Origin: Candidatus Binataceae bacterium
GTDB lineage: Bacteria > Desulfobacterota > Binatia > Binatales > Binataceae
Direction of reading: 5' to 3'
NCBI GenBank assembly: GCA_035295545.1
Contig: DATGIT010000009.1
Location: 140,823 to 204,822 of the forward strand
Length of the DNA: 64,000 bases
Shown: positions 14,526 to 55,681 of the stretch, piece by piece
How positions within the stretch are numbered: the stretch's first letter is position 1
Layout of the letters: every line of letters begins with the position of its first letter
Position numbers and translations under genes: made by a program
The notes under the pieces: generated by a model
Databases searched by the model: none
What the model was told of the DNA's origin: nothing
The model's input: only the letters and a program-made list of their open reading frames with translations

Positions 14526-15252
14526 TCAGGCCCGCGCCGGGACGACGTGGCCGGCGATCATGCTTGCCAGCGATGCGACTGCCCATCCCGCCGCCGGCGC
14601 CGCTATCGCGCCGACCGTGGTGCCGAGAAACACCAGCCAGTCCATGCTCATTGGATGACGCACGATCGAGAGCGTGAGGCCGGCCGCACCGGCAAGCGCC
14701 GGAATGCCCCACCATGCGATCTCGGCGATAACGACCGCGCCTATCACCCGGCGCAATCCCGGCCGCAGCATCGTCCCGCCGACCGCCGCGAGCATCACGG
14801 CCAGTGAAAAATCCGCGGCGAAGGTGCCGAGCCACAGGCGCGGCGGAGGCCACAGAAGCATCGGCAGGCCCTTGGAAGTCGTGAACTGCAGCAGCGCGCC
14901 GATGCCGAGCGCGCCGAGGGCCGCCATCACTGCGGCCGCCGCGTCCGGATTGCCGTAGATCAGGGCGATGACGATAGCGATCACCAGAATGCCCGCGGCA
15001 ATGAGAAAACCCGCGGCATACTGCTGGCGCCGGCGCTCGATGACTTGAGGCGAGGGAGCGATGGTTTCGGCAAGGGCGTCGGCCGCCTCAGCATCATCCG
15101 CAACGTAAATGACGCGGGCCCTGGCCGAGCGCCAGGATTCGTCCGGCGAGGTCGTGGGCTTTGTCGGGTACGCCGGCGCGCCTCGTGCCATGCCCATCAG
15201 CACCGCCATCGTCAGCACCGCCATAGCCGCTTTAAGCGCGTCACGCGACATA
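14526..15252 (-). CDS. Hypothetical membrane protein (signal peptide plus several TM helices)
   Basis: The real start is probably MSRDALKAAMAVLTMAVLMGMA (ATG at 15252). The upstream part of the tracked 430-aa ORF looks like non-coding high-GC read-through. Confidence 0.5.
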
Positions 15253-15377
15253 GCGGCAACTATCCGCCAGCTTCGAGGCCGAGGCAATGACCCCTGCAAC
15301 GACCCGCATGGACTTGCACGCTGGGCGGGGTGTAGCTTTTGAGGGCGTGGCGCGAGCGTCATGCGGGAGCCGGGGCG

Positions 15378-15989
15378 ATGGCGTGGATTCGGACGATCTC
15401 GGAGCAGGCGGCGGACGGGCCGCTGGCCGAACTTTTCGCGAAACTCCGGCGCAATCCGCACTTTGCCGGGGTGCCCAATATAATCAAGGCCTTCAGTCTG
15501 CGGCCGGAAATCGCAGCAGCGGTGACCCGGCTCTCGACCGCGGCAACCTTCGGCGGCTCGCATCTCACCCGCGTGCAGGAGGAGATGATTGCCACGGCAG
15601 TGTCGGCGGCGAATCGATGCCATTATTGAACGAATGCGCACGCGGAGGTGCTCCGCGTCGAATCGGGCGGAGAACACGCGCTGGTGCAGGCGATTAAGGA
15701 GAACTGGCGCGGTGCGGCACTGGGCGAGGCCGATCGCGCGATGCTGGCGTATGCCGAGAAGCTCACGCGCACGCCCTGGGCGATGACCCGCGCCGACCTG
15801 GACGAACTGCGCCGCCATTTCACCGAGGAGCAGGCCTACGACATCGTCGTGATCGCATGCCTGTTCAATTTCATGGACCGCGCGGCGGACGCATTCGGCG
15901 TCGAGCTTGATGCGACGCTGCGCGCGCGCGCACGTTCGGCCCCCGAGGGCGAGGCGCTGGGCGAGGCCGCAGCCGGGAAGCGGAGTTGA
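15378..15989 (+). CDS. Putative selenoprotein: AhpD-like / carboxymuconolactone-decarboxylase-family peroxidase-related enzyme with in-frame TGA (Sec) at 15627-15629
   Basis: The tracked ORFs 15339-15629 and 15648-15989 are in the same frame and separated by a single TGA. The read-through product is ...MIATAVSAANRCHY[U]TNAHAEVLRVESGGEHALVQAIKENWRG..., so the TGA sits exactly at the second Cys of the family motif N-x-C-x-Y-C-x-x-x-H. The N-terminus (MAWIRTISEQAADGPLAELFAKLRRNPHFAGVPNIIKAFSLRPEIAAAV) matches this family. A hairpin follows 10 nt downstream. Confidence 0.75.
15640..15658 (+). promoter_or_regulatory. Candidate bacterial SECIS hairpin for the AhpD-like selenoprotein
   Basis: ACGCGGAG-GUG-CUCCGCGU is a perfect 8-bp stem (or a 6-bp stem with a 7-nt AGGUGCU loop containing GGU). 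It starts 10 nt after the UGA at 15627-15629. Confidence 0.55.
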
Positions 15990-16387
15990 CGATGAAGATC
16001 GCTCGTCGCAAGCGCGTCATCGTGCTGTCGGCCGCATTCGGACTGGTGGCGGGCGGATGCTCGCTCTTTCACAGGACGCCGCCGCAGCAGCAGTACCTCG
16101 ATGCGCTCAAGATGGGCAATGCGGCGCAGGCGAGTCAGGTCTGGCTGCAGATGTCGCCGGAGCAGCGCGTCCAGTTTCAACGCGGCGAAGGTATGCGTCC
16201 GACGGTCTCGCACAACGCGGTGCAGCAGGCGATCGACGACCATTACTCCGATCGGGGCGAAGACGGCGCGACGCCCAGCCAGGTCCAGGTGAATCCGGAT
16301 CTCGGCGGCAGCTTGCAGGACCTGCCTTCGTACCTCGACTCCCAGGACATCGGCGGGACTCCGCAGATTGCGCCGTCCAGCCAGTAA
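15986..16387 (+). CDS. Hypothetical lipoprotein
   Basis: Lipobox-type signal peptide (LVAGGCS). Start overlaps the upstream stop (ATGA), suggesting translational coupling with the AhpD-like gene. Confidence 0.55.
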   Translation: MTMKIARRKRVIVLSAAFGLVAGGCSLFHRTPPQQQYLDALKMGNAAQASQVWLQMSPEQRVQFQRGEGMRPTVSHNAVQQAIDDHYSDRGEDGATPSQVQVNPDLGGSLQDLPSYLDSQDIGGTPQIAPSSQ

Positions 16388-23053: not shown

Positions 23054-23503
23054 ATGACTCCGCACGAATTCGCGCGCAGCCTTAACGGTCTGTCTGCCGG
23101 AACCCTGATCGAGAATATGGAGATGCTGGAGGCAGGCGAGGGCCGCGCGCGGTGCCGCATGGAGTTAAAGCCGCATCTGCGCCAGCTCACCGGTTTGTTT
23201 CATGCCGGCGCGGTCGTGGGGCTCGCGGACACGGCCGCCACCGCGGCTGCGATGTGGGAATTGAATCCGACCGGCGAATTTCGCCCGGAGCTGTTTCCGC
23301 TTTCGATCCAGGTCTCGGCCAACCTCATTCGTAATACGAATCGTGGCGCACTGACCGCCGCTGCCCAACTGATTCATCGCGGCAAAAGCACGATGGTTGC
23401 CGAGGTGCGGGTGATCGACGATCAAGGGCGGCTGATCGCCAAGGTTACGGTGACCCTGATGGTGCCGAAAGCATCGGCGCAAAAGGGCCGCGCGCAAGTT
23501 TAG
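23054..23503 (+). CDS. PaaI-family hotdog thioesterase
   Basis: 149 aa. LFHAGAVVGLADTAA motif and hotdog-fold length. Confidence 0.65.
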   Translation: MTPHEFARSLNGLSAGTLIENMEMLEAGEGRARCRMELKPHLRQLTGLFHAGAVVGLADTAATAAAMWELNPTGEFRPELFPLSIQVSANLIRNTNRGALTAAAQLIHRGKSTMVAEVRVIDDQGRLIAKVTVTLMVPKASAQKGRAQV

Positions 23504-23835
23504 TTGCGAAACCGGTCGCTCAGGCGCCGCAGCATCCCGGCGCTCGCGTTGCGCTTCCGTCCCTCGTCCGACTCGTGCGCTGAAGCCGTGCCGCCGGGGG
23601 CGACGCCTGATGTTTTGAGGTTGGCGATCAGGTCTTCGACCTCGCCCTCGGCCGGAAAGCGGCCGGCCTCGGCCTTGGAGAAGATCAATTTTCCATCGAC
23701 CAGAATATCGAACTGGCCGGTTTTGCCGACCTTTATGTCGGCCTGCTCGCCGAACCGTTTATGTATCGACGCGGCCAGACTGGCCGCGCGCGGCTTGTAG
23801 CCTCAAGCGGAACAGTAGAGGATTTCCGTAGCCAT
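23500..23835 (-). CDS. selW: Putative selenoprotein: SelW/Rdx-family protein with in-frame TGA (Sec) at 23805-23803
   Basis: Minus-strand translation from ATG (23835): MATEILYCSA[U]GYKPRAASLAASIHKRFGEQADIKVGKTGQFDILVDGKLIFSKAEAGRFPAEGEVEDLIANL... It aligns to the SelW CxxU motif (VVYCGAUGYKSKYLQL ... FEVMVAGKLIHSKKKGDGY). Only the post-TGA part is in the ORF track. A SECIS-like hairpin lies 12 nt downstream. Confidence 0.8.
23769..23789 (-). promoter_or_regulatory. Candidate bacterial SECIS hairpin for the SelW-like selenoprotein
   Basis: The mRNA after the UGA reads GGCUACAAGCC then GCGCGGCC-AGUCU-GGCCGCGU, a 7-8 bp stem with a 5-nt loop containing G and U. Confidence 0.55.
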
Positions 23836-37282: not shown

Positions 37283-38143
37283 TCAGAAATAGACATTCTG
37301 CATCGTGCGCACGCCTGCGCGCCGCTCTCTGATTCGAGGATGGTCGAACAGGTGCAGGAGAAAAATCTGATCTATCCAGCGCGCGTCTTTGAAGAGCCGC
37401 CGCGAGCGCAGAAAACGGTACTGCTCGATTTTGCGCATTTCATGTTCGGCGTTGAATTCGTTGATTGCGAGCAGTTCGCCGGCCCAGTTGCTGTAGGTCG
37501 GCAGCACGATGTCGTCAAAATACAGAATCGGCAGGAACAAATACTTGGCCGCGTTGGGATCGGCCAGCAGACCCAGGGCCGGTTTGGTTGATGAATAGTA
37601 ATCCAGATCGAAGGCGGCGAACCCCAGTGGTGCGTCGGTGCTGAGCGAGTTGCCGACGAACGCCGGCACGGTCTGGTGAACCGGCCCGAGCACCAACTCG
37701 CAATTGGACGGCAGACTCGTTCGCAAGCGCTCGTGCTCCATCGGAAAATCGCCTGCCTGAAATTCCTCCGGATGGTCGCGGTAGTCGGACGGCGGCGGCA
37801 TTCCCGCTCCGCTGTCGAAGCCGACGATTCTGACGCCGACCCCGGTCGTGCGGCTTACGCGGCTCGCGATCGCGCACAGGTTGAGCAGGCCTTCGCCGGC
37901 GGCGACGCCGAATTCCACCGCCGTGAAGCACTTTACGCCCGCCTCGCGCGCCTGGTCCGCCGCAGCCAGAAGCCCATACGCGTAGTGCGGTCGGCTGATG
38001 AGATCGCACGCGACCTTCGCGCGGAAAGTTCCCAGCAACGCGACCGCTGCCGAGGCTGCATTCAGATGCAATGGCTCGGTGAGCCGCTCGCGCAGAATGC
38101 GGTAACGAGCGCTGCGCTGCCGGCGTAGCTTGCGGAGCAACAT
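37283..38143 (-). CDS. TylF/MycF-like class I SAM-dependent O-methyltransferase candidate
   Basis: VKCFTAVEFGVAAGEGLLNL and FAAFDLDYYSSTKPAL...LYFDDIV resemble the macrocin-O-methyltransferase family (IVECGVxRGGS...LDGDLYEST...DDY). Lower GC than the chromosome average. Confidence 0.45.
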   Translation of the reverse strand: MLLRKLRRQRSARYRILRERLTEPLHLNAASAAVALLGTFRAKVACDLISRPHYAYGLLAAADQAREAGVKCFTAVEFGVAAGEGLLNLCAIASRVSRTTGVGVRIVGFDSGAGMPPPSDYRDHPEEFQAGDFPMEHERLRTSLPSNCELVLGPVHQTVPAFVGNSLSTDAPLGFAAFDLDYYSSTKPALGLLADPNAAKYLFLPILYFDDIVLPTYSNWAGELLAINEFNAEHEMRKIEQYRFLRSRRLFKDARWIDQIFLLHLFDHPRIRERRAGVRTMQNVYF

Positions 38144-38157
38144 CGCTTCGGTCCTCC

Positions 38158-39948
38158 TCAGACGCGGATGCGGCGCGCGAATTGTCTGGCCAGCGCCAGC
38201 ATGCGCTCGTTGCCGGCGAGATGATTGTCGCGAAATTCCGACAGCCAGCGGCGCAATGCGACACGGGCCTCGTGGGCCACACGGCTGCGCGCATCGAGCG
38301 GCGCGCGCTCATTCGTCCGGCTCACTTCGACCGTCGCCTGCTCGCCGGGATCGAGTTCGAGTTCGGCTGCGAGCCGCCCGTGCGCTCTTCGATGCTCCAG
38401 AGGCGAACCGTTGAGCAACAGCCCCGCGTCCGGATCTTCGTCAGCGACAGGTCGCGAGATCGTGAAGACGGTTCGCGAGCCGTATGGATTACGCATCCGG
38501 AAGCGTCGGGTATAGAATTTCGCTTCGGCCGCGGCCGGCCCGGTTTTCCTGTACAGCGCCGTTTCCGTCAGACTGGTCTCGAGCGGCGCCCACGAGATGC
38601 GCGGCTCCATTTCATTGATCGAACGCACAAATTCACAGGCGGCTGTATAGCCATTTTTGAAATAGTCGTGATGCTCGACGATCAGAGCCGGCTTGCCCAT
38701 GAACAGATCGAAGGCAAACGGAAACGACGCAATCGGATATCTTCGGCCGAACAAGGGCAATCCGCCGTCGCCGACCACGGCCACGTCCAGCAGGTCGCGA
38801 ATGGTCAGTTGCCGGCGGAAGGAGCCGGACGCCAGGACCGATGTATTCACCGCGGCGAGGTAGCCTTCGGCCGCCAGCGCCCGCAACGCGGCGCCTGAGA
38901 AGCCGCCTTGCGGGAAAATCATGATTGGCTCGCATGGAAGCCCGCTGCTTGCCGCATGCGCCCGCATCCGGCTGATTGCGGTGCGCGCCTTGTCGCGAAG
39001 CATCGCTTCGTCTTCGTCGGCAAATTCGGCGGCCGTATGATCGCAACCGTGGATGCATAGCGAGAAGCGGTTGCCGTGCGTGCGCAGCAGATCGGCAACC
39101 TGGGGATCGGTCCGGCGATAATTCCACGGAATGAATGCCAGCGTGGTCGCGAATCGATGAGCTTCCATCTCGGCGACGAGCCGATCGAAGCGCAGAAATC
39201 CGTAACGCGGGCGCAGCAGCGGGTCATCGATGGTGAGCGTCGCGTGCGGCGCCGGGTTGCTCCAGCAGTATTCGCTGAACGCGCTGCGCAGAAACAGCAG
39301 CGGCGGCAGCAGGCTCGCGTAGTGCCGCGCGTCCAGGCCGCCGGCCTCGGCTTTCTCATCGAGATCCGCCATCTCGCCTTCGGCGCAGAGGAAAATCCGG
39401 CACCCGCGGAGTTTCGCCAGCGCCAGGCATGGGCGTTGCTCGAGCGTTACAATCTGACTGACTGCGCCGCCGCGCAAATCCGCCTGTCCGACGGCAAAGC
39501 CGCGCGCGTCCGCGCTTGGTGGGAACTTCAGCCCGGCCAGCGGTCCCGCGATCTCGCGCGCCGCCGGCGAGATCGCGTAAGCTCCGGAGTTACCGTGGCT
39601 GTCAGCGGAGCGGAACAGCGCGCGATCGGTGAGCCATGCGGCCACATCGTCGCCCTCGTTCGGCCGGAACCCATAGATGAAAGCATGATCGAAACCGGCC
39701 AGCAGCGCGTCCGGCGAAGCGGGTGGGATGCGGGCCTGATCTTTGAGCCGCGCCAACGCGTTGCTGCTGGCCGCGATAGCACTGCATCCTCGCATCTTCG
39801 CCGAATCCAACAGGTCCTCGCCGGCGCCATCTCCGCATACCTTCAGCGTCAGCGCCTCGACGCCCATCATTTCGACGAGCTTCGCGAGTCTCAGGTCCGA
39901 AGCGCGGCTGGCCGCGCATGAGAGCAAGGCGAGTCGTGAAGCGGCCAC
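38158..39948 (-). CDS. Hypothetical 596-aa protein with a CE4 (polysaccharide deacetylase)-like central region
   Basis: LTIDDPLL (resembling TFDDG) is followed ~65 aa later by LCIHGCDHT (HxxxH-like). The N-terminal ~200 aa and the C-terminal region have no recognisable motif. Confidence 0.4.
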   Translation of the reverse strand: MAASRLALLSCAASRASDLRLAKLVEMMGVEALTLKVCGDGAGEDLLDSAKMRGCSAIAASSNALARLKDQARIPPASPDALLAGFDHAFIYGFRPNEGDDVAAWLTDRALFRSADSHGNSGAYAISPAAREIAGPLAGLKFPPSADARGFAVGQADLRGGAVSQIVTLEQRPCLALAKLRGCRIFLCAEGEMADLDEKAEAGGLDARHYASLLPPLLFLRSAFSEYCWSNPAPHATLTIDDPLLRPRYGFLRFDRLVAEMEAHRFATTLAFIPWNYRRTDPQVADLLRTHGNRFSLCIHGCDHTAAEFADEDEAMLRDKARTAISRMRAHAASSGLPCEPIMIFPQGGFSGAALRALAAEGYLAAVNTSVLASGSFRRQLTIRDLLDVAVVGDGGLPLFGRRYPIASFPFAFDLFMGKPALIVEHHDYFKNGYTAACEFVRSINEMEPRISWAPLETSLTETALYRKTGPAAAEAKFYTRRFRMRNPYGSRTVFTISRPVADEDPDAGLLLNGSPLEHRRAHGRLAAELELDPGEQATVEVSRTNERAPLDARSRVAHEARVALRRWLSEFRDNHLAGNERMLALARQFARRIRV

Positions 39949-39951
39949 GGG

Positions 39952-40275
39952 TCAAGGCGCCGGATTCGCCAGCAGGTTGCGCAGCGCGTCGATCAGGCTA
40001 CCCAGGGTTTTAAGGTCGTCGCTGTTCAACGGACTTTCCCCTTCTTCGGCGGCGAGAACGATTTCACGTCCCAGGGAGTCGCGAATTCCGTCCTCGATGA
40101 ACACCAGCAGATTGATCACGGCCAGCGAGTCGAACGCGCTTCCGTCATCGAGCAGCGGGACCGCGCGGCTCTTAGGCAGCCGCTGAGCGCCGGACAAGAG
40201 CTCGTTTACGCTATCGATCGCGCGAAAGACGATCGCTTCAACCGCTGCTCCGGCATTGCCATTCGACTCCGGCAT
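39952..40275 (-). CDS. Acyl carrier protein
   Basis: 107 aa. Phosphopantetheine-attachment motif DDGSAFDSLAVINLLVFIE (DSL). Confidence 0.65.
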   Translation of the reverse strand: MPESNGNAGAAVEAIVFRAIDSVNELLSGAQRLPKSRAVPLLDDGSAFDSLAVINLLVFIEDGIRDSLGREIVLAAEEGESPLNSDDLKTLGSLIDALRNLLANPAP

Positions 40276-40324
40276 CGACTTCCCTCACTTCACGGATTTT
40301 GCGGGCGGATGCGCCGACCGCGCA

Positions 40325-40870
40325 CTACGTAACGGTCCGCGACGCGGACCCGTTTCCGGTTTCGCGGGGCGGACGCGCGGGCCGCAGCCCGCGAAGGAAC
40401 GATACGTACGAAGGCGCCGTCGCCAGCGGGACCGCCACCGTGGCCACGACCTGGGGAGCCGCAGGCTTGACGAAGGTGAAAGGGGCCACGTCACTCGTGA
40501 TAATCGAGCCAGCGCCCACCACCGCACCTTCGCCAATAGTAAGAATGCGCCCCTTGGCGCTGCTGATCAGGCAGCAGGCGCCGATCCAAGCGCCTTTTTT
40601 TATGACCACCTTACCGGGGCCGCGCAGGTGGGCGATAATCACGGATCGGAGTCCGATCTCGACGTCGTCTTCGATCTCGATACAGGTCGGATACTCATTC
40701 TCCAGATAGACATCGTCGCCGATGAAGACATTGCGTCCCAGGCGCACGCCTCTCAGGCGATGGAGAAAGGGCCGCAGGCTTCGGCTGCCGGGCAAAGCGC
40801 GCGCCATCAAATGGAGCACGCGGTTCACCGCCCCGCGAGGAAGAGAATTGCGCTCGACCTGGTTTGCCAT
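40325..40870 (-). CDS. Hexapeptide-repeat (left-handed beta-helix) acyl/acetyltransferase
   Basis: Imperfect hexapeptide repeats (IGDDVYLE...IEIEDDVEIGLRSVII...KGAWIGACCLISSAKGRILTIGEGAVVGAGSIITSDV). Start taken at MANQVERNS; the longer 213-aa version is also possible. Confidence 0.65.
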   Translation of the reverse strand: MANQVERNSLPRGAVNRVLHLMARALPGSRSLRPFLHRLRGVRLGRNVFIGDDVYLENEYPTCIEIEDDVEIGLRSVIIAHLRGPGKVVIKKGAWIGACCLISSAKGRILTIGEGAVVGAGSIITSDVAPFTFVKPAAPQVVATVAVPLATAPSYVSFLRGLRPARPPRETGNGSASRTVT

Positions 40871-40874
40871 CCAG

Positions 40875-42704
40875 TCAGTCAACCGCTTGCGTGGCCGGTC
40901 GGATATGCCGGTGCGCACGCGGCGGGCGTGCCGCTTGATCGATCGCCGGCCAATCCGCCGCATCATTCGCCAACGATACGCACCCGGGAAGCGGGTAATC
41001 CCGATCCAGGCTCCAATCGAAGACCCGCGACTCGGTTGAGTTGCCGGAGGTTTCGGTCATGCCGCTGCCGCAAAAAAAGCGCAGGCAGGGCTGGTTTCTT
41101 GCCGTGGGCAGATACCCGGCGCGGAGCGACGACGAGCCGGCGCGCCGTGCCTGCGCGGCGAGCGTGTGGAGCATCGCTTCTTCAATTCTTCGCCCCATCA
41201 CTCGGCAGCTGAGGACGAAATCTTCTATATTTGCCGTTGCCGCCGGGCGGTCCAGGCTGAGCGAGCCGATGCCGACCAATCCGTAGTCGCCGAACCTGTC
41301 GGCCACGCGAAAGACCAGCACGCGACGATCGGGCGCGGACGCCCACGCCAGCATTTCCGACGCCGGCAGCCTCCGCGTGCGCAGATTCATCTGGTTGGTC
41401 TTGTTCAGGAGCTGCGCGGCGCGTTCCAGGTTGGCGGCGCTCAATTCCTCGACCTGGACGCGCAGCTCGAGCGTGGCGAGCCAGGCATCCAGCGACGGCA
41501 CGGTTTGCTGCAGCTGTTTGCGCCGGCGCTCGGACAGGTACATCGCGCCGCGCGCGCGATCCTCCGCGCTCACCGCGGGCGCGTCAAAGCAGTCGAGCGC
41601 GCGCAACGCCGAGGCGAACTCGAGCGGGTTTTGCGGCCACTGCGGCACCAGCAGCGCGGGCAGCGCTTCGGCGACCCGCGCCCGCTCCACCGGATGGTCG
41701 TCGATCAACACGGCCGCGTCGAGTCCGAGATTCAGCTCGGCGACCAGCTCCGCGATGTTGCGCGCCTTGTCGTTCCAGTCGATGCGCCAGCCGGCGAAAT
41801 CGTCCAGCTTCAACACCATCTCCGGATGGTTGGCGATGGCCTCGAGCGCGGTGCGCTCTTCGTTCTTGCTCGCGATTGCGAGCAGGACGCCGCGCCGCGC
41901 GAGCGCTTTGAGCGCGAGCTGAAAATCCCGAAAGGCTTCGCCGACCGCGTCATGTCCGCCCAAGCGCAGCGCGCGCCAGCCGACGTCGCCGACCACCCCG
42001 CCCCACAGCGTGTCGTCGAGGTCGAGAATCACGAGCTTGCGCGCGCCGCCCGCGATTCCTGTGAGCGCAGCGCTCAGGTCGCGCGCCGCCGATTTGAACA
42101 CGTCGAGCGAGAAGGGAATCTTCGCCAGGTACCACATCCGGGCGTCGCAGGCGCGCGTGCCGGCCTGTGCGATCCAGCGCGCGGCATCGAACAGATGGAT
42201 CCGCGGGTCGCCGCTCACGGCCTCGGCCAACGCCAGGTTCATGCGCATCAGCGTCGCGCTCGGGCCGATGGTCGGATGCATGTCGAGCAGTCCGCGGCGG
42301 CCTTCGAACGCGTGCATCGGCGCCCAGGTCGGCACCAGGATCGACTTGACGTGCGGCGGTATCGCGGCGAGCGCGCGCGCGTACGCGCGCACTTCCTCCA
42401 TCATCTGTTCCAGCACCAGTGGCTCGTATGCCAGCACGCCGGCGTATGCCTTCGAGATCGCCTGCGGCGACGTCCATACGACGGCCGCGTCGAGGTCCGC
42501 CTGCCACACGGCGGAATGCGCGGCGAGCAGCAGCTGCATCACCTGTCCGAACGGAGCAGCGGTCGCGCGAAGTCGCGCTCCGTTTGCGCTCCAGTTGGAA
42601 AGCAACGAGGCCAGGTTCTGCGCGTTGAAATCCGAGACTATGAGGATATTCCTCGTGTGCAGAGCGGCGCCGTCCGCCCGAATGACCGTGTCCACCTTGT
42701 CCAT
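40875..42704 (-). CDS. FkbH-like HAD-superfamily (subfamily IIIC) protein with C-terminal GNAT-like domain
   Basis: KLVILDLDDTLWGGVVGD (HAD DxDxT motif) with the FkbH-like domain architecture and a C-terminal VFRVADRFGDYGLVGIGSLSL...FVLSCRVMGRRIEE domain. 609 aa. Confidence 0.65.
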   Translation of the reverse strand: MDKVDTVIRADGAALHTRNILIVSDFNAQNLASLLSNWSANGARLRATAAPFGQVMQLLLAAHSAVWQADLDAAVVWTSPQAISKAYAGVLAYEPLVLEQMMEEVRAYARALAAIPPHVKSILVPTWAPMHAFEGRRGLLDMHPTIGPSATLMRMNLALAEAVSGDPRIHLFDAARWIAQAGTRACDARMWYLAKIPFSLDVFKSAARDLSAALTGIAGGARKLVILDLDDTLWGGVVGDVGWRALRLGGHDAVGEAFRDFQLALKALARRGVLLAIASKNEERTALEAIANHPEMVLKLDDFAGWRIDWNDKARNIAELVAELNLGLDAAVLIDDHPVERARVAEALPALLVPQWPQNPLEFASALRALDCFDAPAVSAEDRARGAMYLSERRRKQLQQTVPSLDAWLATLELRVQVEELSAANLERAAQLLNKTNQMNLRTRRLPASEMLAWASAPDRRVLVFRVADRFGDYGLVGIGSLSLDRPAATANIEDFVLSCRVMGRRIEEAMLHTLAAQARRAGSSSLRAGYLPTARNQPCLRFFCGSGMTETSGNSTESRVFDWSLDRDYPLPGCVSLANDAADWPAIDQAARPPRAHRHIRPATQAVD

Positions 42705-42710
42705 CCCCGC

Positions 42711-43673
42711 CTAGCGCGAAGAGCTCCGCGCCATCTTCAAAGAAGTCCCGATCTGCCTGCGCGCGTCGGAGCCCGGAGCTGCACGCGTGACCGTCGCCCG
42801 CGCCTGCGGCGCGCGCCGCACGCGCAGCGCCAGGAAAATGCGCCGTTTGAGTTCCGCTGCCCACGGCACCCAGTCATACGCGCCGACCAGCTTGAGATGA
42901 AACTCGATCATCCAATCATCGGGATCGACGCGCACTCTGCCAATCAGGAATTCGCACGGGTCCTCAAGCGCCCGCGCCGGCATGCCGTCGAACGCCCGCT
43001 GGTAGCCCGCCATCCGGCACAGCGCGAGCGTCTGCGGGGTGTGGACTCCGAACGGGAAACAGAACAACACCACTTCCTGTCCGAGCACCTGTTTGAGCCG
43101 TTCGCGCGAGTCGATGAGTTCGCGCAAAGCCTCGCGCCGGCCGGTCGCGACCAGGCGCCGGTGCGAGCAGGTATGCGACCCGATCATGACCAGTCCGGCC
43201 GCAATGTCCGGCTGCAACGCGCGCAATTCCGTCTCGGAAACGATCCGATCGCGTTGCCCGCCCAGATGCTCACCCATGCAATCGGAGATGACGAAGATCG
43301 CGACCGGAATGCGTCGCTGCTTGAGCTCCGGCAGAGCATTTTCGACAAAGCTGGTCCATCCGTCGTCCGCGGTGACCATGGCGTAACGTCGCCCAGGAGG
43401 AAGGGGTGCTCTGTGATCTGCGCTAATCGGCACGGCCCAACGCAGCAGATGATCCATTTGCCTGGCGAATCGGTCGCGCTGTTCGGGCAAAACCTGATGA
43501 TAGTAGATGCCCGTCGCGTGCCCGGGACGCCTGGAGCCGAGCACCCGCGTCAATCCATCGACCAGCGACCGCAGCAGCCAGAAGCTCATCGACAGCAGAA
43601 ACTTCACCAAGCGAAGGAGCGGATTGGGTGCGAAGGGGGGCATCGCAGCATCGTGTGCTTTGAGTCTGGACAT
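42711..43673 (-). CDS. Polysaccharide deacetylase (CE4/NodB-homology) family protein
   Basis: RRYAMVTADDGW (TFDDG-type motif) and MIGSHTCSHRRL (HxxxH). N-terminal hydrophobic segment. Confidence 0.7.
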   Translation of the reverse strand: MSRLKAHDAAMPPFAPNPLLRLVKFLLSMSFWLLRSLVDGLTRVLGSRRPGHATGIYYHQVLPEQRDRFARQMDHLLRWAVPISADHRAPLPPGRRYAMVTADDGWTSFVENALPELKQRRIPVAIFVISDCMGEHLGGQRDRIVSETELRALQPDIAAGLVMIGSHTCSHRRLVATGRREALRELIDSRERLKQVLGQEVVLFCFPFGVHTPQTLALCRMAGYQRAFDGMPARALEDPCEFLIGRVRVDPDDWMIEFHLKLVGAYDWVPWAAELKRRIFLALRVRRAPQARATVTRAAPGSDARRQIGTSLKMARSSSR

Positions 43674-44089
43674 ACCGACACGTCAGGCTGGCGGAGCGCT
43701 CTTGAGGCAGGGAGCAACTTTTATGCCCTGCGTTTCGTGCTCTTTGGACTAAAAAAGTGCGAAATCGTTACTTGGATTCACCAGGCGCGTCTGCAAAATC
43801 GAATCAGCCTCTTGCAATTCTTGCCGACTCGATTTCTATAAAAGCAATCTACCGCCGAGGACCTGAGCAGGCGATGTCTGGCGCGAATCGGCTTGCAAGC
43901 GCACCGTACGGTGCTGCGCAAGGTGCCGCGTACCAGCCAGCACCGGGTTTATGTTGAGACTCAAGGACCACGTCGCACGCCCAAGTCGATGCGTGCGCGT
44001 AACCAAAATGACGCCGCCAGCTCCGGAGAGATTTGTAGCGCCCGATAAATGAAGACTAATATGCGGGTATCTGTCGCAGGAAAACCGCG

Positions 44090-47000
44090 ATGGCTGACGA
44101 CAGTCGGGACCAGCAGGCAAAGCAGCGGCGCGTTCCCGTCTGCGGGATAGGAGCCTCTGCCGGAGGCCTCGAAGCACTGCAGAAGCTGTTCGGCGCTTTG
44201 CCGAACGATCTGGGTCTGGCCTACGTGGTCATTGTCCACCTTGCTCCGGATCGCAAGAGCGATCTGCCGGCCATCATCGGCCGCTGGACGCAGATGCCGG
44301 TGACGCAGGTGGGCGACCACGACAGGGCCGCGCTGGCGGGCAATCACGTCTACGTGATTGCGCCGGACCGCCGGCTCGAAATCACGGATACCTCGGTCGC
44401 TGCGGCAAATTTCGAGCAGGTGCGCGGTCAGCGGGCGGCGATCGATCTGTTTTTCCGCTCGCTCGCTTCGGCGCGCGGTGACGGGTTCGCGATCATTCTT
44501 TCAGGCAGCGGTTCAGACGGCGCGCTGGGCGCGCGCGCGGTCAAAGAGAGTGGCGGGGTGGTCCTGGTGCAGGATCCGCAGGAAGCGGCTCACAGCGATA
44601 TGCCGCAGGCGGTCATTGCCACGGGGGTTGCGGATGTTGTGTTGCCGGTGAAGGAACTGGTCGCGCGACTGGCCGATTTAGCGCGCACCAAGGACAGCGT
44701 TAACTCGCTCGCCAACGCGGAGGAATCCCAGCGCTTCGATGAACGCGAGGAGCGCGCGCTGCGCGGTATCTTCGACCTGCTACGACGCCGCACCGGCCAT
44801 GATTTCTCCAAGTACAAGCGCAACACGGTGTTGCGGCGGCTCGCCAGGCGCATGCAGCTTTCCCACCAGCTGACGATCGAGGATTACCTGCACTTTCTCC
44901 GCCGCGATGCCGGGGAGGTGGGTTCGCTTTTCGACGATCTGCTGATCTCGGTCACCTCGTTTTTTCGCGATGCGGACGCCTGGGACGCGCTGCAGGCGCA
45001 GGTCATTGTTCCGCTGCTCGATCGCACGGCGGTTGAAGAGCAGCTGAGGGTATGGGTCCCGGCGTGCGCCACCGGAGAGGAGGCATACACGCTCGCGATC
45101 CTGTTCCATGAGGTGTTCGAACGTCTCGGCGTTCAGCGCGATCTGGTTATTTTCGCCTCGGACGTGGACGAGCCCGCGCTGGCGGTCGCTCGGGAGGGAT
45201 TGTATCCGCGGGCAATCGCCGCCGATGTGACGGAGCTGCGACTGGACCGGTATTTCCGGCTCGAAGGCGACCATTACCGGGTGGCAAGTACCATCCGCGA
45301 CCATGTGGTTTTCGCCGCGCACAATCTGCTGCGCGATCCGCCGTTCTCACGGCTCCACCTCGTCTCGTGCCGCAATTTGCTGATCTATCTCGATCGCGAG
45401 CTGCAGGAGCAGGCGATGGCGGTGTTCCGGTACGCGTGCCGCGACGAGGCTTTTCTGTTCCTGGGAGCTTCGGAAGTGGCCGACGCGGAAATGTTCCAGG
45501 ACGTTGACAAGAAGCACCGCATCTTTGTGATCCGCCCGCGAACCGACGGCAACCGCACTCCCTTGCCGGATGTTCTGGCGACGCAGACCGGACCGATGGT
45601 TCGGCGCGAAGCCCAGGCGCCCATGCGTACCAACCTGGCGGAGATCCACCTCGCGGCGCTCGAGGAGGCGGCGCCGCCGACGGTGGTCATCGATGAGCGC
45701 TGGAACGTGCTCCACCTGTCGCCGAGCGCATCGCGCTTTTTCCAGCAGAGCGGGGGACCGCTGGCGCAACGCATCACAGACCTGATCAGGCCGGAACTAC
45801 GCGACGATTTGCACGCCCTGCTGCACCGCGCCGCGGAGGCGCGCGGGCCGCAACTCTCGGCCTTCATCTCGGTGACTTTCAACGGCGCGCTCCATCGCGT
45901 CGCCATGTTGATCCAGCAGCCGCGCAACGCGGACGGAATCGCGGCCCACGCCCTGATCACTTTTCTCGACGCCGGCGAGGCCAGCGAGCAGCCGGCACCC
46001 GACCAGGAGCCGACCAGTGAAATGGTGCGCGCGTTGCGCGAAAAGCTGCGCCAGGCCGAGCAGCGCATCGAAAACATGCGCGACGACTACTATCTCACTA
46101 ACGAAGATCTGCGCGCCGCCAACGAGGAGTTGCAAAGCCTCAACGAGGAGTATCGCTCGACCACCGGGGAACTTCAGACCAGCAAGGAAGAGCTGCAGAG
46201 CATCAACGAGGAGCTGCAGACCGTCAACCAGGAACTCAAGCAGAAACTCGAGGAGGTTTCGCGCGCGAACAGCGACCTGGAAAACCTGATGGCCGCTGTT
46301 GACGTGGCGACGCTGTTTCTCGATCGCCAGTGCCGCATCAGCCGCTTCACTCCGCGTCTGGGCGAGATCTTCAACGTCAAGGCCCGGGATCGCGAACGCC
46401 CCATCAGCGATATCACGCACGTGCTCGATTACGCCGCGCTGGAGAGCGATGCGCGGCGGATGATTGCCGGCTCCAGGCCGTTCCAGCACGAAGTCAGGAG
46501 CCGCGATGGACGGGTCTTCGTCGCGCGCCTCAATCCCTACCGCCAGATCGGCAAGGATGAGATTGACGGCGTGGTTATCACGTTCATCGACGTGACCGAG
46601 ATCAAGGCGGCCGAGGCGGCCTTGCGCGACAGCGAACGCAGGCTCGAGGCGGAACTCGACGTGATGCGGAAGCTCCATCGGATGACGATGGCGATGGCCA
46701 CGGCGCCGACGCTGGTGCAGGCTCTGAACGAGAGTCTGAACTCGGCGATTAGCCTGCTCGGGGCGCAATTCGGCAGCGTCCAAGTGCTCGATGCGGATTC
46801 GCACAAGCTGAAAGTCATAGCGCAGCGCGGTTTTCAGCCGGAATTCCTGAAAACCTTCGACTCGATCGGAACCGAGGACAATTCCTCTTGCGGTCGCGCC
46901 CTGCGCTCGCATGCCTCGGTGCTGATCGAGGACGTGGCCTCAGAGCCCGACTATACGCCGTATCGCGCGACCGCTGCTGCCGCCGGCTACCGCGCGGTCC

Positions 47001-48295
47001 AATCCGAGCCGATGCTGGGAAAGGACGGCAAGCTGGTCGGCGTGCTCTCGGTCCATTTTCGCGAGCCGCACCGCTTCACCGATCGCGAACGGCAGATTGG
47101 CGCGCTCATCGCCCGGCAGGCGGCTGACCTGGTAATGGCTCATCGCACGGCCGCCCTCGAGGCGAGCGAGAAGGAACTCTCCACAAGGGCGGCCCAGCTG
47201 GTCGAATACGATCGCAACAAGGACCGTTTTCTCGCCGGGCTCGGGCATGAACTGCGCAACCCGATGGCCGCCATCCAGTACAGTCTCGAACGGCTGTTGC
47301 CCAGCGGCGAACCGTCCAAAACCGCCATCGCTCTTATCCGGCGCCAGGCGGAGCACATGGTGCGCCTCATCGACGACCTGCTCGACCACACGCGAATCAA
47401 TCGCGGGACGTTGCGCGTCGTGCGCAGCGCGGTCAATCTCAACCAGACCGTGCTTGCCGCCGTCGAAGCGGTGCGCGCGCGCGCGCGGTCCAAGGGACTC
47501 ACGGCCGAGGCGAAATTGCCCGATAACCCGATCTTTGTTCACGCCGACCAGGAACGTCTCACGCAGATCCTCGACAATCTGCTGAACAATGCCCTGGCGT
47601 TCACCGAACACGGAAGCATCACCGTCAGCGTCGAGCGTAGCGAAGCGCTGGCTCGAATCACGGTCCGCGATACCGGCGTGGGCGTCGACCCGGCTCGGGC
47701 CCAGACGCTCTTCGAGCCGTTCAGGGTCGCTGACTTGCCTGCTCGTGGCGATGACTTGGGGATGGGTCTGGGGCTGTCGCTGGTCAAGCGTCTGGTGGAG
47801 ATGCATGAGGGGACCGTGGCATTGCATAGCGAGGGGCGCGGGAGCGGGAGTGAAATCACCTTCACGATTCCGCTCGCCCGCGGCGAAATTCCTCCCGCCC
47901 CCGCACCTCCCGACCTGCCGCCCCCGCGCCGGGTGCTTGTGGTCGACGATCAGCGCGACGTCGCGGAGATGTTCGGTCGCCTGCTCGAGGGCATGGGACA
48001 AGACGTGCGCGTGGCATATAGCGGTGAAGCCGCGCTCGCGGTCGCACGCGCTTATCGACCGCACGTCGCTTTCGTGGACTTGGCCATGCCCGGCATGGAT
48101 GGTGAAGAGTTGGCGCGGCGGCTGCGCGAGGAATTTGCGCCCGAACAGCTTGCGCTGGTTGCGACCAGCGGCTATCCGCGCAACGAAGAATTGGACAGCG
48201 CCACACTCTTCGAGCATCACCTGCTAAAGCCCATTGCAGCCGAGCAACTGATCGCGCTGCTGAACTCCCTGGCTCCTGGCATGTCTTCGAAATAG
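44090..48295 (+). CDS. Multidomain sensor: CheB methylesterase + CheR methyltransferase + coiled-coil linker + PAS/GAF + histidine kinase + C-terminal receiver domain
   Basis: - CheB-like: VCGIGASAGGLEALQKLF...VVIVHLAPDRKS.
- CheR-like: LRVWVPACATGEEAYTLAILF...FSRLHLVSCRNLLIYLD.
- Heptad coiled coil: ANEELQSLNEEYRSTTGELQTSKEELQSINEELQTVNQELKQK.
- HisKA: LGHELRNPMAAIQYSLE.
- HATPase_c: RDTGVGVD...GMGLGLSLVKRLVEMHEG.
- REC: VLVVDDQRDVAEM...VAFVDLAMPGMDGEEL. Confidence 0.85.
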   Translation: MADDSRDQQAKQRRVPVCGIGASAGGLEALQKLFGALPNDLGLAYVVIVHLAPDRKSDLPAIIGRWTQMPVTQVGDHDRAALAGNHVYVIAPDRRLEITDTSVAAANFEQVRGQRAAIDLFFRSLASARGDGFAIILSGSGSDGALGARAVKESGGVVLVQDPQEAAHSDMPQAVIATGVADVVLPVKELVARLADLARTKDSVNSLANAEESQRFDEREERALRGIFDLLRRRTGHDFSKYKRNTVLRRLARRMQLSHQLTIEDYLHFLRRDAGEVGSLFDDLLISVTSFFRDADAWDALQAQVIVPLLDRTAVEEQLRVWVPACATGEEAYTLAILFHEVFERLGVQRDLVIFASDVDEPALAVAREGLYPRAIAADVTELRLDRYFRLEGDHYRVASTIRDHVVFAAHNLLRDPPFSRLHLVSCRNLLIYLDRELQEQAMAVFRYACRDEAFLFLGASEVADAEMFQDVDKKHRIFVIRPRTDGNRTPLPDVLATQTGPMVRREAQAPMRTNLAEIHLAALEEAAPPTVVIDERWNVLHLSPSASRFFQQSGGPLAQRITDLIRPELRDDLHALLHRAAEARGPQLSAFISVTFNGALHRVAMLIQQPRNADGIAAHALITFLDAGEASEQPAPDQEPTSEMVRALREKLRQAEQRIENMRDDYYLTNEDLRAANEELQSLNEEYRSTTGELQTSKEELQSINEELQTVNQELKQKLEEVSRANSDLENLMAAVDVATLFLDRQCRISRFTPRLGEIFNVKARDRERPISDITHVLDYAALESDARRMIAGSRPFQHEVRSRDGRVFVARLNPYRQIGKDEIDGVVITFIDVTEIKAAEAALRDSERRLEAELDVMRKLHRMTMAMATAPTLVQALNESLNSAISLLGAQFGSVQVLDADSHKLKVIAQRGFQPEFLKTFDSIGTEDNSSCGRALRSHASVLIEDVASEPDYTPYRATAAAAGYRAVQSEPMLGKDGKLVGVLSVHFREPHRFTDRERQIGALIARQAADLVMAHRTAALEASEKELSTRAAQLVEYDRNKDRFLAGLGHELRNPMAAIQYSLERLLPSGEPSKTAIALIRRQAEHMVRLIDDLLDHTRINRGTLRVVRSAVNLNQTVLAAVEAVRARARSKGLTAEAKLPDNPIFVHADQERLTQILDNLLNNALAFTEHGSITVSVERSEALARITVRDTGVGVDPARAQTLFEPFRVADLPARGDDLGMGLGLSLVKRLVEMHEGTVALHSEGRGSGSEITFTIPLARGEIPPAPAPPDLPPPRRVLVVDDQRDVAEMFGRLLEGMGQDVRVAYSGEAALAVARAYRPHVAFVDLAMPGMDGEELARRLREEFAPEQLALVATSGYPRNEELDSATLFEHHLLKPIAAEQLIALLNSLAPGMSSK

Positions 48296-48311
48296 CGGCG
48301 AGACCTCATGT

Positions 48312-48334
48312 CGGCCTCGCCAGAGGGGCGAGGC
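48312..48334 (+). terminator. Candidate terminator hairpin after the sensor kinase gene
   Basis: GGCCTCGCC-AGAGG-GGCGAGGCC 9-bp GC stem 16 nt after the stop. No clear U-tract. Confidence 0.3.
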
Positions 48335-48599
48335 CCGGTCTCCAGTCGGTCGCCGTTTCGCTTCAAATCCCTTCGTTCAGCATTCTTGAGCGAACAGCGA
48401 CGATCTAAAGCGAGCGCTCTAGAAAAGGCAGGGGAGCTATTCCGCGTTCCACCCGCTTCTCAACCTGAGCACTCTCGCCATCGTCATCCTTGGCCAGGAC
48501 AGCCAATGCTTGTCGCTCGTGCGGCAAATCGGTAGTCGAGTAACGTGATGGCACACCTGGTCTGGCCAGGGGCTCTTTGACCGTGCCCTCGGAGGCCGT

Positions 48600-49253
48600 A
48601 TGGAACGCAAGTACTTCTCAGTGTCGTGCGATCCCGGCCGGTCGCTTCTTGGCGGAAAAGTCGTCTGCGGATATGGCAGGCGGCTGCGCAAGGCCGCCAT
48701 CGCTGGTTTTCTGGTCGTCGGGGTCGCGCTCCGTACCGGCGCCGCAGCAGCGGGTGCCGACGCAGGCGCTTCGGGGCCAGCCCTTGGATCGGCCCGCGAC
48801 TACGTACAGACCGAACCCGGCTATTACGCTCCCAACTCGGTGGATTCCTACGAGAGCGCCGCGTTGGGCATTGCGGTCCAGGCGGAGACGGTGTGGTCCG
48901 GGCGGGGGCGATGGGTTGATGGACTGAGGATCGTGCGGATACTCCCCGGCAGTCGGGCGGGCGCGGCAGGTCTGCAGGGGAGCAGTCCGGGAAGCCTGAG
49001 TACCAGTCTGCTTTTCTTCGGCATGATTGCAAGCGCGGCGATATGCCCGCCGATGATGTTCGGGATGATTGCGCTCAGCAAGGCTGTCCAGCCGCATGAA
49101 ACCATCATCGCCGTGGATGGCGAGCGGACGCGCAACATTTTCGATTTCGAGAACGCCATCGAGGAAGGGCAGGCGGGGGAAATCGCCTACCTGACTGTCC
49201 TTAGCCATGGCCGCCGCGAACAGATTCCAGTGCTTCTGGCGCCGGGAGGTTGA
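48600..49253 (+). CDS. Hypothetical PDZ-domain-like protein
   Basis: GLRIVRILPGSRAGAAGLQ ... ETIIAVDGERTRNIFDFENAIEEGQAGEIAYLTVLSHGRREQIPVLL resembles a PDZ fold interrupted by a hydrophobic insert. Start uncertain. Confidence 0.35.
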   Translation: MERKYFSVSCDPGRSLLGGKVVCGYGRRLRKAAIAGFLVVGVALRTGAAAAGADAGASGPALGSARDYVQTEPGYYAPNSVDSYESAALGIAVQAETVWSGRGRWVDGLRIVRILPGSRAGAAGLQGSSPGSLSTSLLFFGMIASAAICPPMMFGMIALSKAVQPHETIIAVDGERTRNIFDFENAIEEGQAGEIAYLTVLSHGRREQIPVLLAPGG

Positions 49254-49370
49254 TGGAATCACGGCGCGCGCGCCGCCGCCGCGAGCGCATGCACCGAGCC
49301 GTACCGGCATCGGCAGTCAGGCAGGGCGTCGCCATGAACGGATTGCACAGTCGCGTGTGGCACGGTGCGA

Positions 49371-49631
49371 CTAGGTGCCGCGCAATTTCGGCACGTTGTA
49401 GGCATCGAAGGCAATCAGCGTTTTGGTTTCACGCAGGTGGGGCACGCGCTGGATTCGATCCACCACCAGGCGCGCCAGCTGATCGAAGTCCGCCACCCTG
49501 ATCTTCACGATGAGGTCGTAGTCGCCCGCGAGCGAATGCATCTCCTCGACGATCTCCATTTCGACCAGCGCCTTGACTACATCGTCGAGATGCGCAGGTT
49601 CGGTTTTCATCAGCACGAACGCTACGAGCAT
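49371..49631 (-). CDS. Stand-alone Lrp/AsnC C-terminal (RAM/ligand-binding) domain protein
   Basis: 86 aa. MLVAFVLMKTEPAHLDDVVKALVEMEIVEEMHSLAGDYDLIVKIRVADFDQLARLVVDRIQRVPHLRETKTLIAFDAY matches the AsnC_trans_reg domain and has no N-terminal HTH. Confidence 0.6.
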   Translation of the reverse strand: MLVAFVLMKTEPAHLDDVVKALVEMEIVEEMHSLAGDYDLIVKIRVADFDQLARLVVDRIQRVPHLRETKTLIAFDAYNVPKLRGT

Positions 49632-50005
49632 CGGTCTATCCTCCGGATTGAAACGATTCGCGCGCGATACAAATCCAGCCGAACCATGTTGCAGAACTCA
49701 GCCGCTTCGCGAAACGGCCGATCGCGCGGTCTGCTCAGCCCCGGCCTCCGCACTGCAAGGATAATTGACCGCCGAATTCAGGTAACACCCAAGACGTCAC
49801 GCCGCCCGCAAGGCACAGAAAATAGACGTTCGTCTTGAATCGATGTCAGCCTCTTATTATGTCTCTTTATTCTCAAAAGATGGAAATGCACGTCTTGAAG
49901 TAAAACCGGTCAGAGCGTTCTCGACATTGTCCCGCATTAGCGTTCCTTGAATCGAGGACGGTTTTTTGTAGAAATTGTGGCAAACAGATAAGACGAAGCT
50001 GGAGC

Positions 50006-50335
50006 ATGCGAAAATACATTACTCCAGGATCGGTTCGGATTTACGGCCTTCCCGGCACGGACGAGAATTTCGGCCTGCGTGACAATGGCGCCGGGCAGAT
50101 GTGGTCGATGACCAGGAGGGTCGGCACGATCAACTACTGGACGGGCGAGGTCGTTCTGGACAAGAAGTACGTCCCGAAGTTTGGCTTCTGGTACGAGCTG
50201 AAATCCATGTTCAAGCTGAGGCGGGGTGATTCTGCCGATATCAGCTGTGAGTATGAGGTCTCGGTGCTTGATATTGAAGGCAAGCAGGAGCCCGCTTTCA
50301 CCGGACTCAAGTACCCGTTCGTGACAGGACGCTAG
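50006..50335 (+). CDS. Hypothetical protein (109 aa) in a low-GC island
   Basis: Intact ORF with coding-like composition. No recognisable motif. Confidence 0.35.
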   Translation: MRKYITPGSVRIYGLPGTDENFGLRDNGAGQMWSMTRRVGTINYWTGEVVLDKKYVPKFGFWYELKSMFKLRRGDSADISCEYEVSVLDIEGKQEPAFTGLKYPFVTGR

Positions 50336-50420
50336 AGCGGCGAGCGGCTGCCCTAGCCAGCATTACTCGCCGGTTCGCGCTGAGGATTTCGAGCGCTTCC
50401 GCGCAGCGCCGGCAGCCCGG

Positions 50421-52028: not shown

Positions 52029-52088
52029 TGACTGTCTCTCCAGGTGCGGCGAGTCGAGCGGCTGTCGTGCAGCAACATGCAGGCCCGC

Positions 52089-52829: not shown

Positions 52830-53015
52830 ATGCTTTCCTGGCTGCCTTTCGCAGAGCATCGATCTGCGGCGAGGTTTGCGCAAGCGCGCCGTGCGCTTTG
52901 CCGCCCGTTCAGCGATGTCGCGCTCGCGCGCATTTGACGCACAGGCGGCGCCGGCGCTAGCTTTCCGCTTATCCTTTGCGGCATGCGTGCCGCGTGCGGA
53001 GCGGAGGCGCGCTTC

Positions 53016-53969: not shown

Positions 53970-53990
53970 GTCGACATCGTTCCAGTAAAC

Positions 53991-54023
53991 GAACGGGCCG
54001 GGAAGCGTCTTCCCGGCCCGTTC
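53991..54023. terminator. Bidirectional terminator hairpin between convergent genes
   Basis: GAACGGGCCGGGAAG-CGT-CTTCCCGGCCCGTTC is a perfect 15-bp stem followed by ACTTTG. It lies between the PTE stop (53969) and the minus-strand HTH gene stop (54047). Confidence 0.6.
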
Positions 54024-54046
54024 ACTTTGCGGCTCACCGACTTGGA

Positions 54047-54292
54047 TTATTTGGCGAGCACCTGCGCGCCGGCCTCCATCCGCGAGCGCCAGAGATCGAT
54101 CGCCTCGACGTTGAAGCGCCAGTCGCTACCGACGCGAAATGCGGGCAACTCGTTACGTTTGAGCAGCCGATAGACCGTCGATGGATGCACCCGCAGATAA
54201 TTGGATACGTCCTGTACGGTCATGACGCGCTGCGCGACCGTATCGAAGCCCGACGCCGCCTCTCGACTAACCTCATAATTGTTCATCTCCAA
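54047..54292 (-). CDS. Excisionase/MerR-type helix-turn-helix DNA-binding protein
   Basis: 81 aa. MTVQDVSNYLRVHPSTVYRLLKRNELPAFRVGSDWRFNVEAIDLWR is a typical Xis-family HTH. Confidence 0.6.
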   Translation of the reverse strand: MEMNNYEVSREAASGFDTVAQRVMTVQDVSNYLRVHPSTVYRLLKRNELPAFRVGSDWRFNVEAIDLWRSRMEAGAQVLAK

Positions 54293-55593: not shown

Positions 55594-55681
55594 ACTTGCC
55601 CGGCGAACAAGATCGCGGCGCGCGAGTCTCCGTTCCGTCGAACGGACAGTAATCACCGAAGACTCGCTCGCTGCGAATGCT

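Follow-up and report, generated by a model that had tools for sequence, protein, structure and literature searches.

An AhpD-like gene split by an in-frame UGA in a Candidatus Binataceae genome is predicted to encode a selenoprotein

We analysed a stretch of 64,000 nucleotides from a Candidatus Binataceae bacterium (GenBank assembly GCA_035295545.1, contig DATGIT010000009.1, positions 140,823 to 204,822 of the forward strand; hereafter the window) that contains an AhpD-like "peroxidase-related" gene interrupted by an in-frame TGA. The two halves form one gene (15378-15989, forward strand), which very probably encodes a 203-aa selenoprotein in which the UGA at codon 84 would be recoded to selenocysteine (Sec). 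Purifying selection acts on both sides of the TGA, and the TGA and the hairpin that follows it are conserved among relatives, with covariation in the stem. The AhpD-like selenoprotein family itself is established and has been known since 2005.

Two same-frame open reading frames (ORFs) are listed in the region, one of 96 aa from a TTG (15339-15629) and one of 113 aa from a GTG (15648-15989). The TGA that closes the first is followed by six sense codons (TNAHAE) before the GTG, and the frame read through the stop gives ...SAANRCHY*TNAHAEVLRVESGG..., with NRCHY*TNAHAEVLRV as the motif context. A preliminary description of this DNA had reported the two ORFs and the TGA between them, as the sequence confirms, and had placed a single gene of about 200 aa at 15339-15989. 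Its 3' end and product length stand; its start does not, and moves from the TTG to the ATG at 15378 (MAWIRTISEQ...), the beginning of an N-terminus that is conserved across all homologues and also the beginning of the public 83-aa call. The same description had expected gene callers to split the gene, and public gene calls do so, into pieces of 83 aa and 113 aa, the latter being an NCBI entry, labelled hypothetical protein, from a Candidatus Binataceae bacterium metagenome-assembled genome (MAG).

Family profiles were searched with the product carrying Cys in place of residue 84. It matches Pfam CMD (PF02627) at 44 bits (cut-off 23), the NCBIfam model TIGR01926 "peroxidase-related enzyme" at 111.3 bits (curated cut-off 81.8) and the core-domain model TIGR00778 at 37.4 bits (27.8). 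The TIGR01926 match runs co-linearly across the TGA, from residues 3-175 of the product to profile positions 2-173 of 178. Canonical AhpD (TIGR00777) was rejected at 21 bits against a cut-off of 191.95, and the product is therefore not an AhpD orthologue. Membership of the two-domain family NF041238 (AhpD_rel_CFYUT) was also rejected (94.5 bits against 175, with only model positions 151-342 matched).

The nearest solved structures are the Cys-type AhpD-like proteins 6k40, 3c1l, 2oyo, 2pfx and 2prr (E 1e-22 to 1e-18 over ~165 residues), and sequence matches of this quality to five structures (E ~1e-20) fix an AhpD-like fold. The NRCxYC motif of the solved structures aligns with NRCHY-U of the window protein. 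Full-length Cys homologues, namely P0001 (61% identical, NRCHYCANAH) and P0030-P0033 (CxYC), likewise align straight through the TGA, and they carry Cys in that column, as do 6k40, 3c1l and 2oyo. The preliminary description had assigned the product to the peroxidase-related subfamily of the carboxymuconolactone-decarboxylase/AhpD family, had put the TGA at the second Cys of the motif, and had proposed alignment across the TGA as a check; the profile scores and these alignments agree with it on each point. The published AhpD proton relay, which comprises Glu118/Cys130/His132/Cys133/His137 in Mycobacterium tuberculosis AhpD and Glu36/Cys48/Tyr50/Cys51/His55 in PA0269 (PMC3141380), has its counterpart, at the same spacings, in Glu69/Cys81/Tyr83/Sec84/His88, with no variation at these five positions among the 22 Sec forms and 5 Cys forms compared.

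A protein search returned 37 homologues. Twenty-seven are fragments of the C-terminal part (~113 aa, 62-99% identity) and another is an N-terminal piece that ends ...NRCHY, so many assemblies split the gene at this position; P0001 and more distant matches are full-length Cys forms. One further match, P0019 (203 aa, 47% identity), was not taken as a true homologue, its middle segment around CxxU being scrambled (NQRPCGGPPHAIAGQ); it is likely a frameshifted gene call across the TGA region and not a real Cys form.

Scanning one genome per GTDB species gave 23 related loci. The homologous codon is a stop in 21 of them, every time TGA and never TAA or TAG, and these loci come from about eight phyla (Binataceae, Nitrospinota, Cytophagia, Gemmatimonadota, Planctomycetota, Acidobacteriota, Terriglobia and Multivoradales), the Binataceae being represented by five species at 81-82% identity. 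The remaining two, both alphaproteobacterial (L021 and L022), carry TGC and are the Cys form. Comparison of the window with the five Binataceae relatives gives a synonymous divergence (pS) of 0.44-0.60 and a ratio of nonsynonymous to synonymous change (dN/dS) of 0.09-0.16 on either side of the TGA. The six codons from the TGA to the GTG differ from those of the Binataceae relatives by 2-3 synonymous and 0 nonsynonymous changes. No restart is conserved at the GTG, since its position reads GTC (in L005), GCT, GAT, GCG, GAC or TTT in other loci, and the conserved His88 lies upstream of it.

The hairpin ACGCGGAG-GUG-CUCCGCGU begins 10 nt after the TGA and consists of an 8-bp perfect stem and a 3-nt loop, as the preliminary description had noticed. 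The consensus constraints for a bacterial Sec insertion sequence (bSECIS), as quoted in PMC13188914, are an apical loop of 3-9 nt, an upper stem of 4-16 bp, a G in the first two loop positions, a UGA-to-loop distance of 16-37 nt and a minimum free energy (MFE) of at most -7.5 kcal/mol. The window hairpin lies within every one of these bounds (loop GUG, stem 8 bp, UGA-to-loop distance 18 nt, MFE -12.3 kcal/mol). The same or an equivalent hairpin within the bounds is found in 20 of the 21 related TGA loci and in 0 of 7 Cys-form loci, in line with the SECIS-type element proposed in the preliminary description. The closest Cys homologue, L024, encodes the same peptide (HAE-L-LR) with the codons GCC GAG TTG CTT CGC, and its longest stem is 4 bp.

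Tests by lineage used one representative each for 12 Sec lineages and 4 Cys lineages. Synonymous-recoding P-values combined to 0.0013 for the Sec lineages and to 0.94 for the Cys lineages, stems were longer in Sec than in Cys lineages (P = 0.0014), and compliance with the bSECIS constraints was 11/12 against 0/4 (P = 0.003). Among six Binataceae genomes, synonymous variation was seen at none of the 6 stem codons and at 95 of 138 other degenerate codons whose amino acid is invariant (P = 0.0013); the three codons 5' of the stem, the loop codon and the codon 3' of the stem all vary.

The orthologues (L001-L023, first 60 nt after the TGA) contain at least three hairpin solutions. Class A, found in Binataceae, has its 3' arm shifted by 2 nt; class B follows the pattern ACG[CG]NGA-GNN-UCU[GC]CGU; and class C uses a later stem with a 6-nt loop, CGUGYN or CGGGCC. 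In every class a stem-loop is retained at SECIS distance, with a G in its loop. The class-B register is common to 11 loci from outside Binataceae; 77 of 77 of their stem cells are paired, and compensatory double changes occur at two pairs, C-G to G-C (7:4) and A-U to C-G (10:1). The first of these couples the second position of the Ala/Gly codon to the wobble base of the Leu codon (GCA with CUG, GGR with CUC). The class-B covariation score was reached by 0 of 500 shuffles and by no slid register. All the hairpins draw on codons of the peptide His-[Ala/Gly]-Glu-x-Leu-Arg, and conservation of H-[AG]-E-x-L-R is far stricter in Sec than in Cys forms.

A second unannotated gene, 8 kb from the first in the same window, belongs to the SelW/SelT/SelH (Rdx) family. 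The Pfam Rdx match of the reverse-strand ORF 23500-23802 begins only at profile position 11; extending this ORF over an upstream TGA to an ATG gives a product beginning MATEILYCSAUGYKPRAASL..., which, with Cys at the TGA, passes TIGR02174 "SelT/SelW/SelH" (55 bits against 34.2, profile positions 2-73 of 74). The hairpin after this TGA, GCGCGGCCA-GUC-UGGCCGCGU, has 9 bp, a loop 22 nt after the UGA and an energy of -16.4 kcal/mol, all within the bSECIS constraints, and the TGA and the same hairpin are kept in 80 of 80 related metagenome loci. It was the truncated Rdx match that led to this gene; a scan for more in-frame TGA genes based on GC content at third codon positions (GC3) was discarded as too noisy at 64% GC. 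Because one 64-kb stretch contains two conserved genes with UGA and SECIS, each from a different established selenoprotein family, Sec decoding by this organism is, as judged from sequence, very likely, and its genome presumably encodes SelA, SelB, SelC and SelD. This gives a first indication of Sec use in Binataceae, a family placed in the phylum Candidatus Binatota, and the lineage would join those that very probably decode UGA as Sec; a literature search for Sec in Binatota returned nothing relevant.

Several points weigh against the selenoprotein interpretation. Taken alone, the window hairpin reaches only z = -1.5 to -2.1 against dinucleotide shuffles. When the peptide is recoded with synonymous codons, the MFE of the window hairpin stands at z = -0.93, and perfect stems of 8 bp or more occur in that place with P = 0.18. 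This lack of significance arises because the peptide H-A-E-x-L-R is nearly a palindrome at the codon level: the opposite strand of GCN-GAG (Ala-Glu) reads CTC-NGC (Leu-Arg), and the coding sequence tends toward an inverted repeat. Single-sequence folding was accordingly rejected as proof of a SECIS, its z against shuffles being weak and its MFE no better than that of recodings, and Rfam at gathering thresholds matched no known RNA family in the window. The support for a predicted SECIS in the window is comparative and does not come from its own hairpin alone. Among the relatives, the TGA locus L011 has a strong hairpin (9-bp stem) whose loop lacks a G at its first two positions. Because the search for relatives relied on peptide patterns such as MAWIRTIS, these loci sample one subfamily. 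The window contains no tRNA, tRNA-Sec included (ARAGORN, Rfam), and no selA, selB or selD; Pfam applied to essentially every plausible window ORF revealed no SelA-, SelB- or SelD-like ORF, and ARAGORN on 108 fetched loci reported only one tRNA-Ser and no tRNA-Sec. Finally, Sec incorporation at codon 84 is something we infer, and any substrate of the product is putative, as for the whole TIGR01926 family.

The conservation of the TGA, the dN/dS values on both sides of it and the unconserved GTG together leave essentially no room for a pseudogene, a split gene or a sequencing error. A Cys-type AhpD-like gene hit by a TGC/TGT-to-TGA nonsense mutation, with its downstream half decaying, would fit the two fragments in public annotation (83 aa and a 113-aa "hypothetical protein") and the failure to find Sec machinery in the window. 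The same TGA at 21 independent loci, the 119 open downstream codons with dN/dS ~0.1 at pS ~0.5, and the conservation of the catalytic His88 and the C-terminal domain make such decay extremely unlikely, and on this evidence we treat the pseudogene reading as effectively refuted. A natural split of an AhpD-like enzyme into two, with an 83-aa protein stopping at the TGA and a 113-aa protein starting at GTG 15648, would explain why gene callers take the GTG, 18 nt after the TGA, as a start in the window and in many relatives. That start is not conserved in the other loci, however; it lies inside the loop of a stable hairpin and is preceded by no Shine-Dalgarno sequence, and the six intervening codons, which show a purifying pattern and contain the catalytic His88, would then go untranslated. 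The Cys homologues, moreover, are single chains. We regard two real genes as very unlikely, and the independent downstream gene that the preliminary description had considered as an objection is not in evidence. An error in sequencing or assembly, with TGC or TGT as the true codon, comes to mind with a MAG as the source, but its probability is vanishingly small: an independent ENA contig (k141_177716 of ERZ27279679) is identical to the window over 6,342 bp (0 mismatches), the same 83 + 113 aa split and an identical 113-aa fragment recur in two shorter contigs from different samples, and TGA stands in 21 other assemblies.

Read-through with an amino acid other than Sec, whether through reassignment of UGA to Trp or Gly or through near-cognate or Cys-tRNA suppression aided by the downstream hairpin, leaves the gene intact and changes only what is inserted. 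Sequence alone, with no sel gene found in the window, is compatible with other inserted amino acids as well. The genetic code is standard, however, since TGA terminates 13 of the 30 Pfam-supported genes of the window, this gene included. The codon aligns with a redox Cys in the classic Sec/Cys pairing, the hairpin fits the SelB-type bSECIS model down to the loop G and the spacing, and the SelW-like gene of the window, from a family known to use Sec, repeats the layout of CxxU plus hairpin. Non-Sec read-through is on these grounds unlikely.

For a single gene with Sec at codon 84, we propose that the product would be a thiol/selenol oxidoreductase with the carboxymuconolactone-decarboxylase/AhpD fold. 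UGA codon 84 would be recoded co-translationally, with the mRNA hairpin formed by the codons of His88-Ala-Glu-Val-Leu-Arg-Val acting as a bSECIS that would recruit SelB-GTP-Sec-tRNA(Sec) to the ribosome; both SelB binding and Sec insertion through this hairpin are predictions. The Cys81-x-x-Sec84 redox pair, set within the AhpD proton relay, would cycle between selenol/thiol and selenenylsulfide, and this cycle may serve peroxide reduction or the re-reduction of a peroxiredoxin or another oxidised partner. The features of both genes are collected in Table 1.

Table 1. Coordinates of the two predicted selenoprotein genes and their elements in the window.
Feature	Position	Strand	Details and basis
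Complete AhpD-like (TIGR01926) gene, predicted selenoprotein	15378..15989	+	203 codons, ATG start; Sec-TGA is codon 84; terminal TGA 15987-15989
Putative Shine-Dalgarno-like GGGAG	15363..15367	+	10 nt upstream of ATG 15378; read directly from the sequence
Glu69 codon, proton-relay Glu	15582..15584	+	12 residues before Cys81; invariant in 22 Sec + 5 Cys forms; equivalent to Glu118 of M. tuberculosis AhpD and Glu36 of PA0269
Redox motif Cys81-His82-Tyr83-Sec84 (TGC CAT TAT TGA)	15618..15629	+	Sequence and homologue alignment
In-frame TGA, codon 84, predicted to be read as Sec	15627..15629	+	TGA in 21/23 related loci, TGC in 2; TGC/TGT in Cys homologues L024-L028
Spacer of 10 nt between UGA and predicted SECIS stem	15630..15639	+	Thr85, Asn86, Ala87 and first base of His88 codon; synonymous sites variable among Binataceae
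His88 codon (CAC), catalytic His of CxxU-x3-H	15639..15641	+	Last two bases start the stem; invariant in 27/27 forms; equivalent to His137 of M. tuberculosis AhpD
Predicted bSECIS hairpin, 8-bp stem ACGCGGAG/CUCCGCGU, apical loop GUG	15640..15658	+	Within bSECIS constraints; stem codons without synonymous variation; homologous class-B stems covary
GTG (Val91), false start of the 113-aa fragment	15648..15650	+	Coincides with the apical loop; not kept as a start codon in other loci
Second predicted selenoprotein gene, SelW/SelT/SelH (Rdx) family, CxxU, unannotated	23500..23835	-	ATG 23835; TGA 23805-23803; hairpin 23789-23769

The AhpD-like gene is surrounded by two MaoC hydratases, a Zn-dependent alcohol dehydrogenase, a divergent unknown gene, a small gene, an acyl-CoA dehydrogenase and a methyltransferase, in an order conserved in 5/5 Binataceae relatives. 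No ahpC or peroxiredoxin gene is adjacent to it. The small gene (15992-16387, forward strand, 131 aa, no Pfam match) starts 2 nt after the selenoprotein stop and has a signal-peptide- or lipoprotein-like N-terminus (MKIARRKRVIVLSAAFGLVAGGCS). It is found downstream in 5/5 Binataceae relatives at 55-59% identity and, being conserved directly downstream, may be co-transcribed with the selenoprotein gene. The divergent ORF 14526-15251 (reverse strand, 241 aa) has no Pfam match, and only aa 122-211 are conserved in the Binataceae relatives.

Farther along the window, 37283-42710 (reverse strand) holds four likely coding ORFs of 341, 597, 110 and 611 aa (GC3 0.73-0.84), none of which matches Pfam at E<=1e-5; a polysaccharide deacetylase adjoins them at 42711-43682. 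A 1,411-aa signalling protein with CheB methylesterase, CheR methyltransferase, PAS, GAF, HisKA, HATPase and receiver domains is encoded at 44060-48295 (forward strand). From 48000 to 64000 the GC content drops from 0.64-0.70 to 0.58-0.61; this part contains several ORFs without Pfam match alongside genes for an MFS transporter, a phosphotriesterase, an O-methyltransferase, a GNAT protein, a YaaH-family protein and a sigma-54 activator.

The main value of these results is for annotation: the AhpD-like and SelW-like genes should each be merged and flagged as selenoproteins, the former being mis-split (83 aa plus a 113-aa "hypothetical protein") in this MAG and in dozens of related assemblies, and the latter being mis-split as well. 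What is new is a mis-split gene in an uncultured soil Binataceae; the family, the CxxU motif and the mechanism are already textbook knowledge in prokaryotic selenoproteomics, and the AhpD-like gene opens no new biological question. The comparative set of 22 Sec forms, 5 Cys forms and three hairpin classes illustrates a coding-region SECIS co-evolving with an active-site peptide. Two broader suggestions seem to us evenly balanced between right and wrong: that Binatota may be a phylum of aerobic soils whose use of Sec has gone unrecognised, and that the SECIS, rebuilt in at least three registers or positions within the codons of the catalytic His and the A-E/L-R palindrome, and the peptide H-[AG]-E-x-L-R may constrain each other.

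The AhpD-like CxxU selenoproteins were first described in the Sargasso Sea selenoproteome (27 sequences, COG2128; PMC1088965), and AhpD-like 1 was among the most abundant families of the Global Ocean Sampling data, with 299 Sec and 902 Cys sequences (PMC2398784). A 2026 review lists the "AhpD-like protein, TIGR01926, CxxU" (PMC13188914), and the family has its own page in BSepDB (PMC13326102); the preliminary description was right to count it among the known prokaryotic selenoprotein families. The window protein belongs to the same hidden Markov model family, has predicted Sec in place of the second Cys and, just 3' of the UGA, a predicted bSECIS whose small apical loop contains a G, and has widespread Cys homologues. 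There is no defining difference, although this copy is unannotated and comes from an uncultured member of the Binataceae (Binatota), and its predicted SECIS is in a codon-palindromic register (HAE-V-LRV) with the 3' arm 2 nt off relative to the orthologues of other phyla.

With M. tuberculosis AhpD and Pseudomonas aeruginosa PA0269, the window protein shares the relay Glu-x11-Cys-x-[His/Tyr]-Cys-x3-His (PMC3141380), with Tyr at the third position as in PA0269; it differs from both in having Sec for the second Cys, and its gene has neighbours from acyl-CoA metabolism and no adjacent ahpC. The "alkylhydroperoxidase-related (seleno)protein" family NF041238 (AhpD_rel_CFYUT; the Sargasso "hypothetical protein 1") has the motif C-[FH]-Y-U-T and a homologous AhpD-like domain, but its model spans 357 positions, of which the window protein matches the C-terminal half only, lacking the N-terminal domain. 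The closest solved relatives, the structural-genomics "uncharacterized peroxidase-related proteins" 2oyo, 2pfx, 2prr and 3c1l together with Deinococcus radiodurans AhpD (6k40), are all Cys forms. The predicted SECIS resembles that of Escherichia coli fdhF in being an intracoding hairpin just 3' of the UGA, at a similar distance and with a loop G followed by U; the two differ in that they have no sequence similarity and that the window stem is perfect, without the bulged U.

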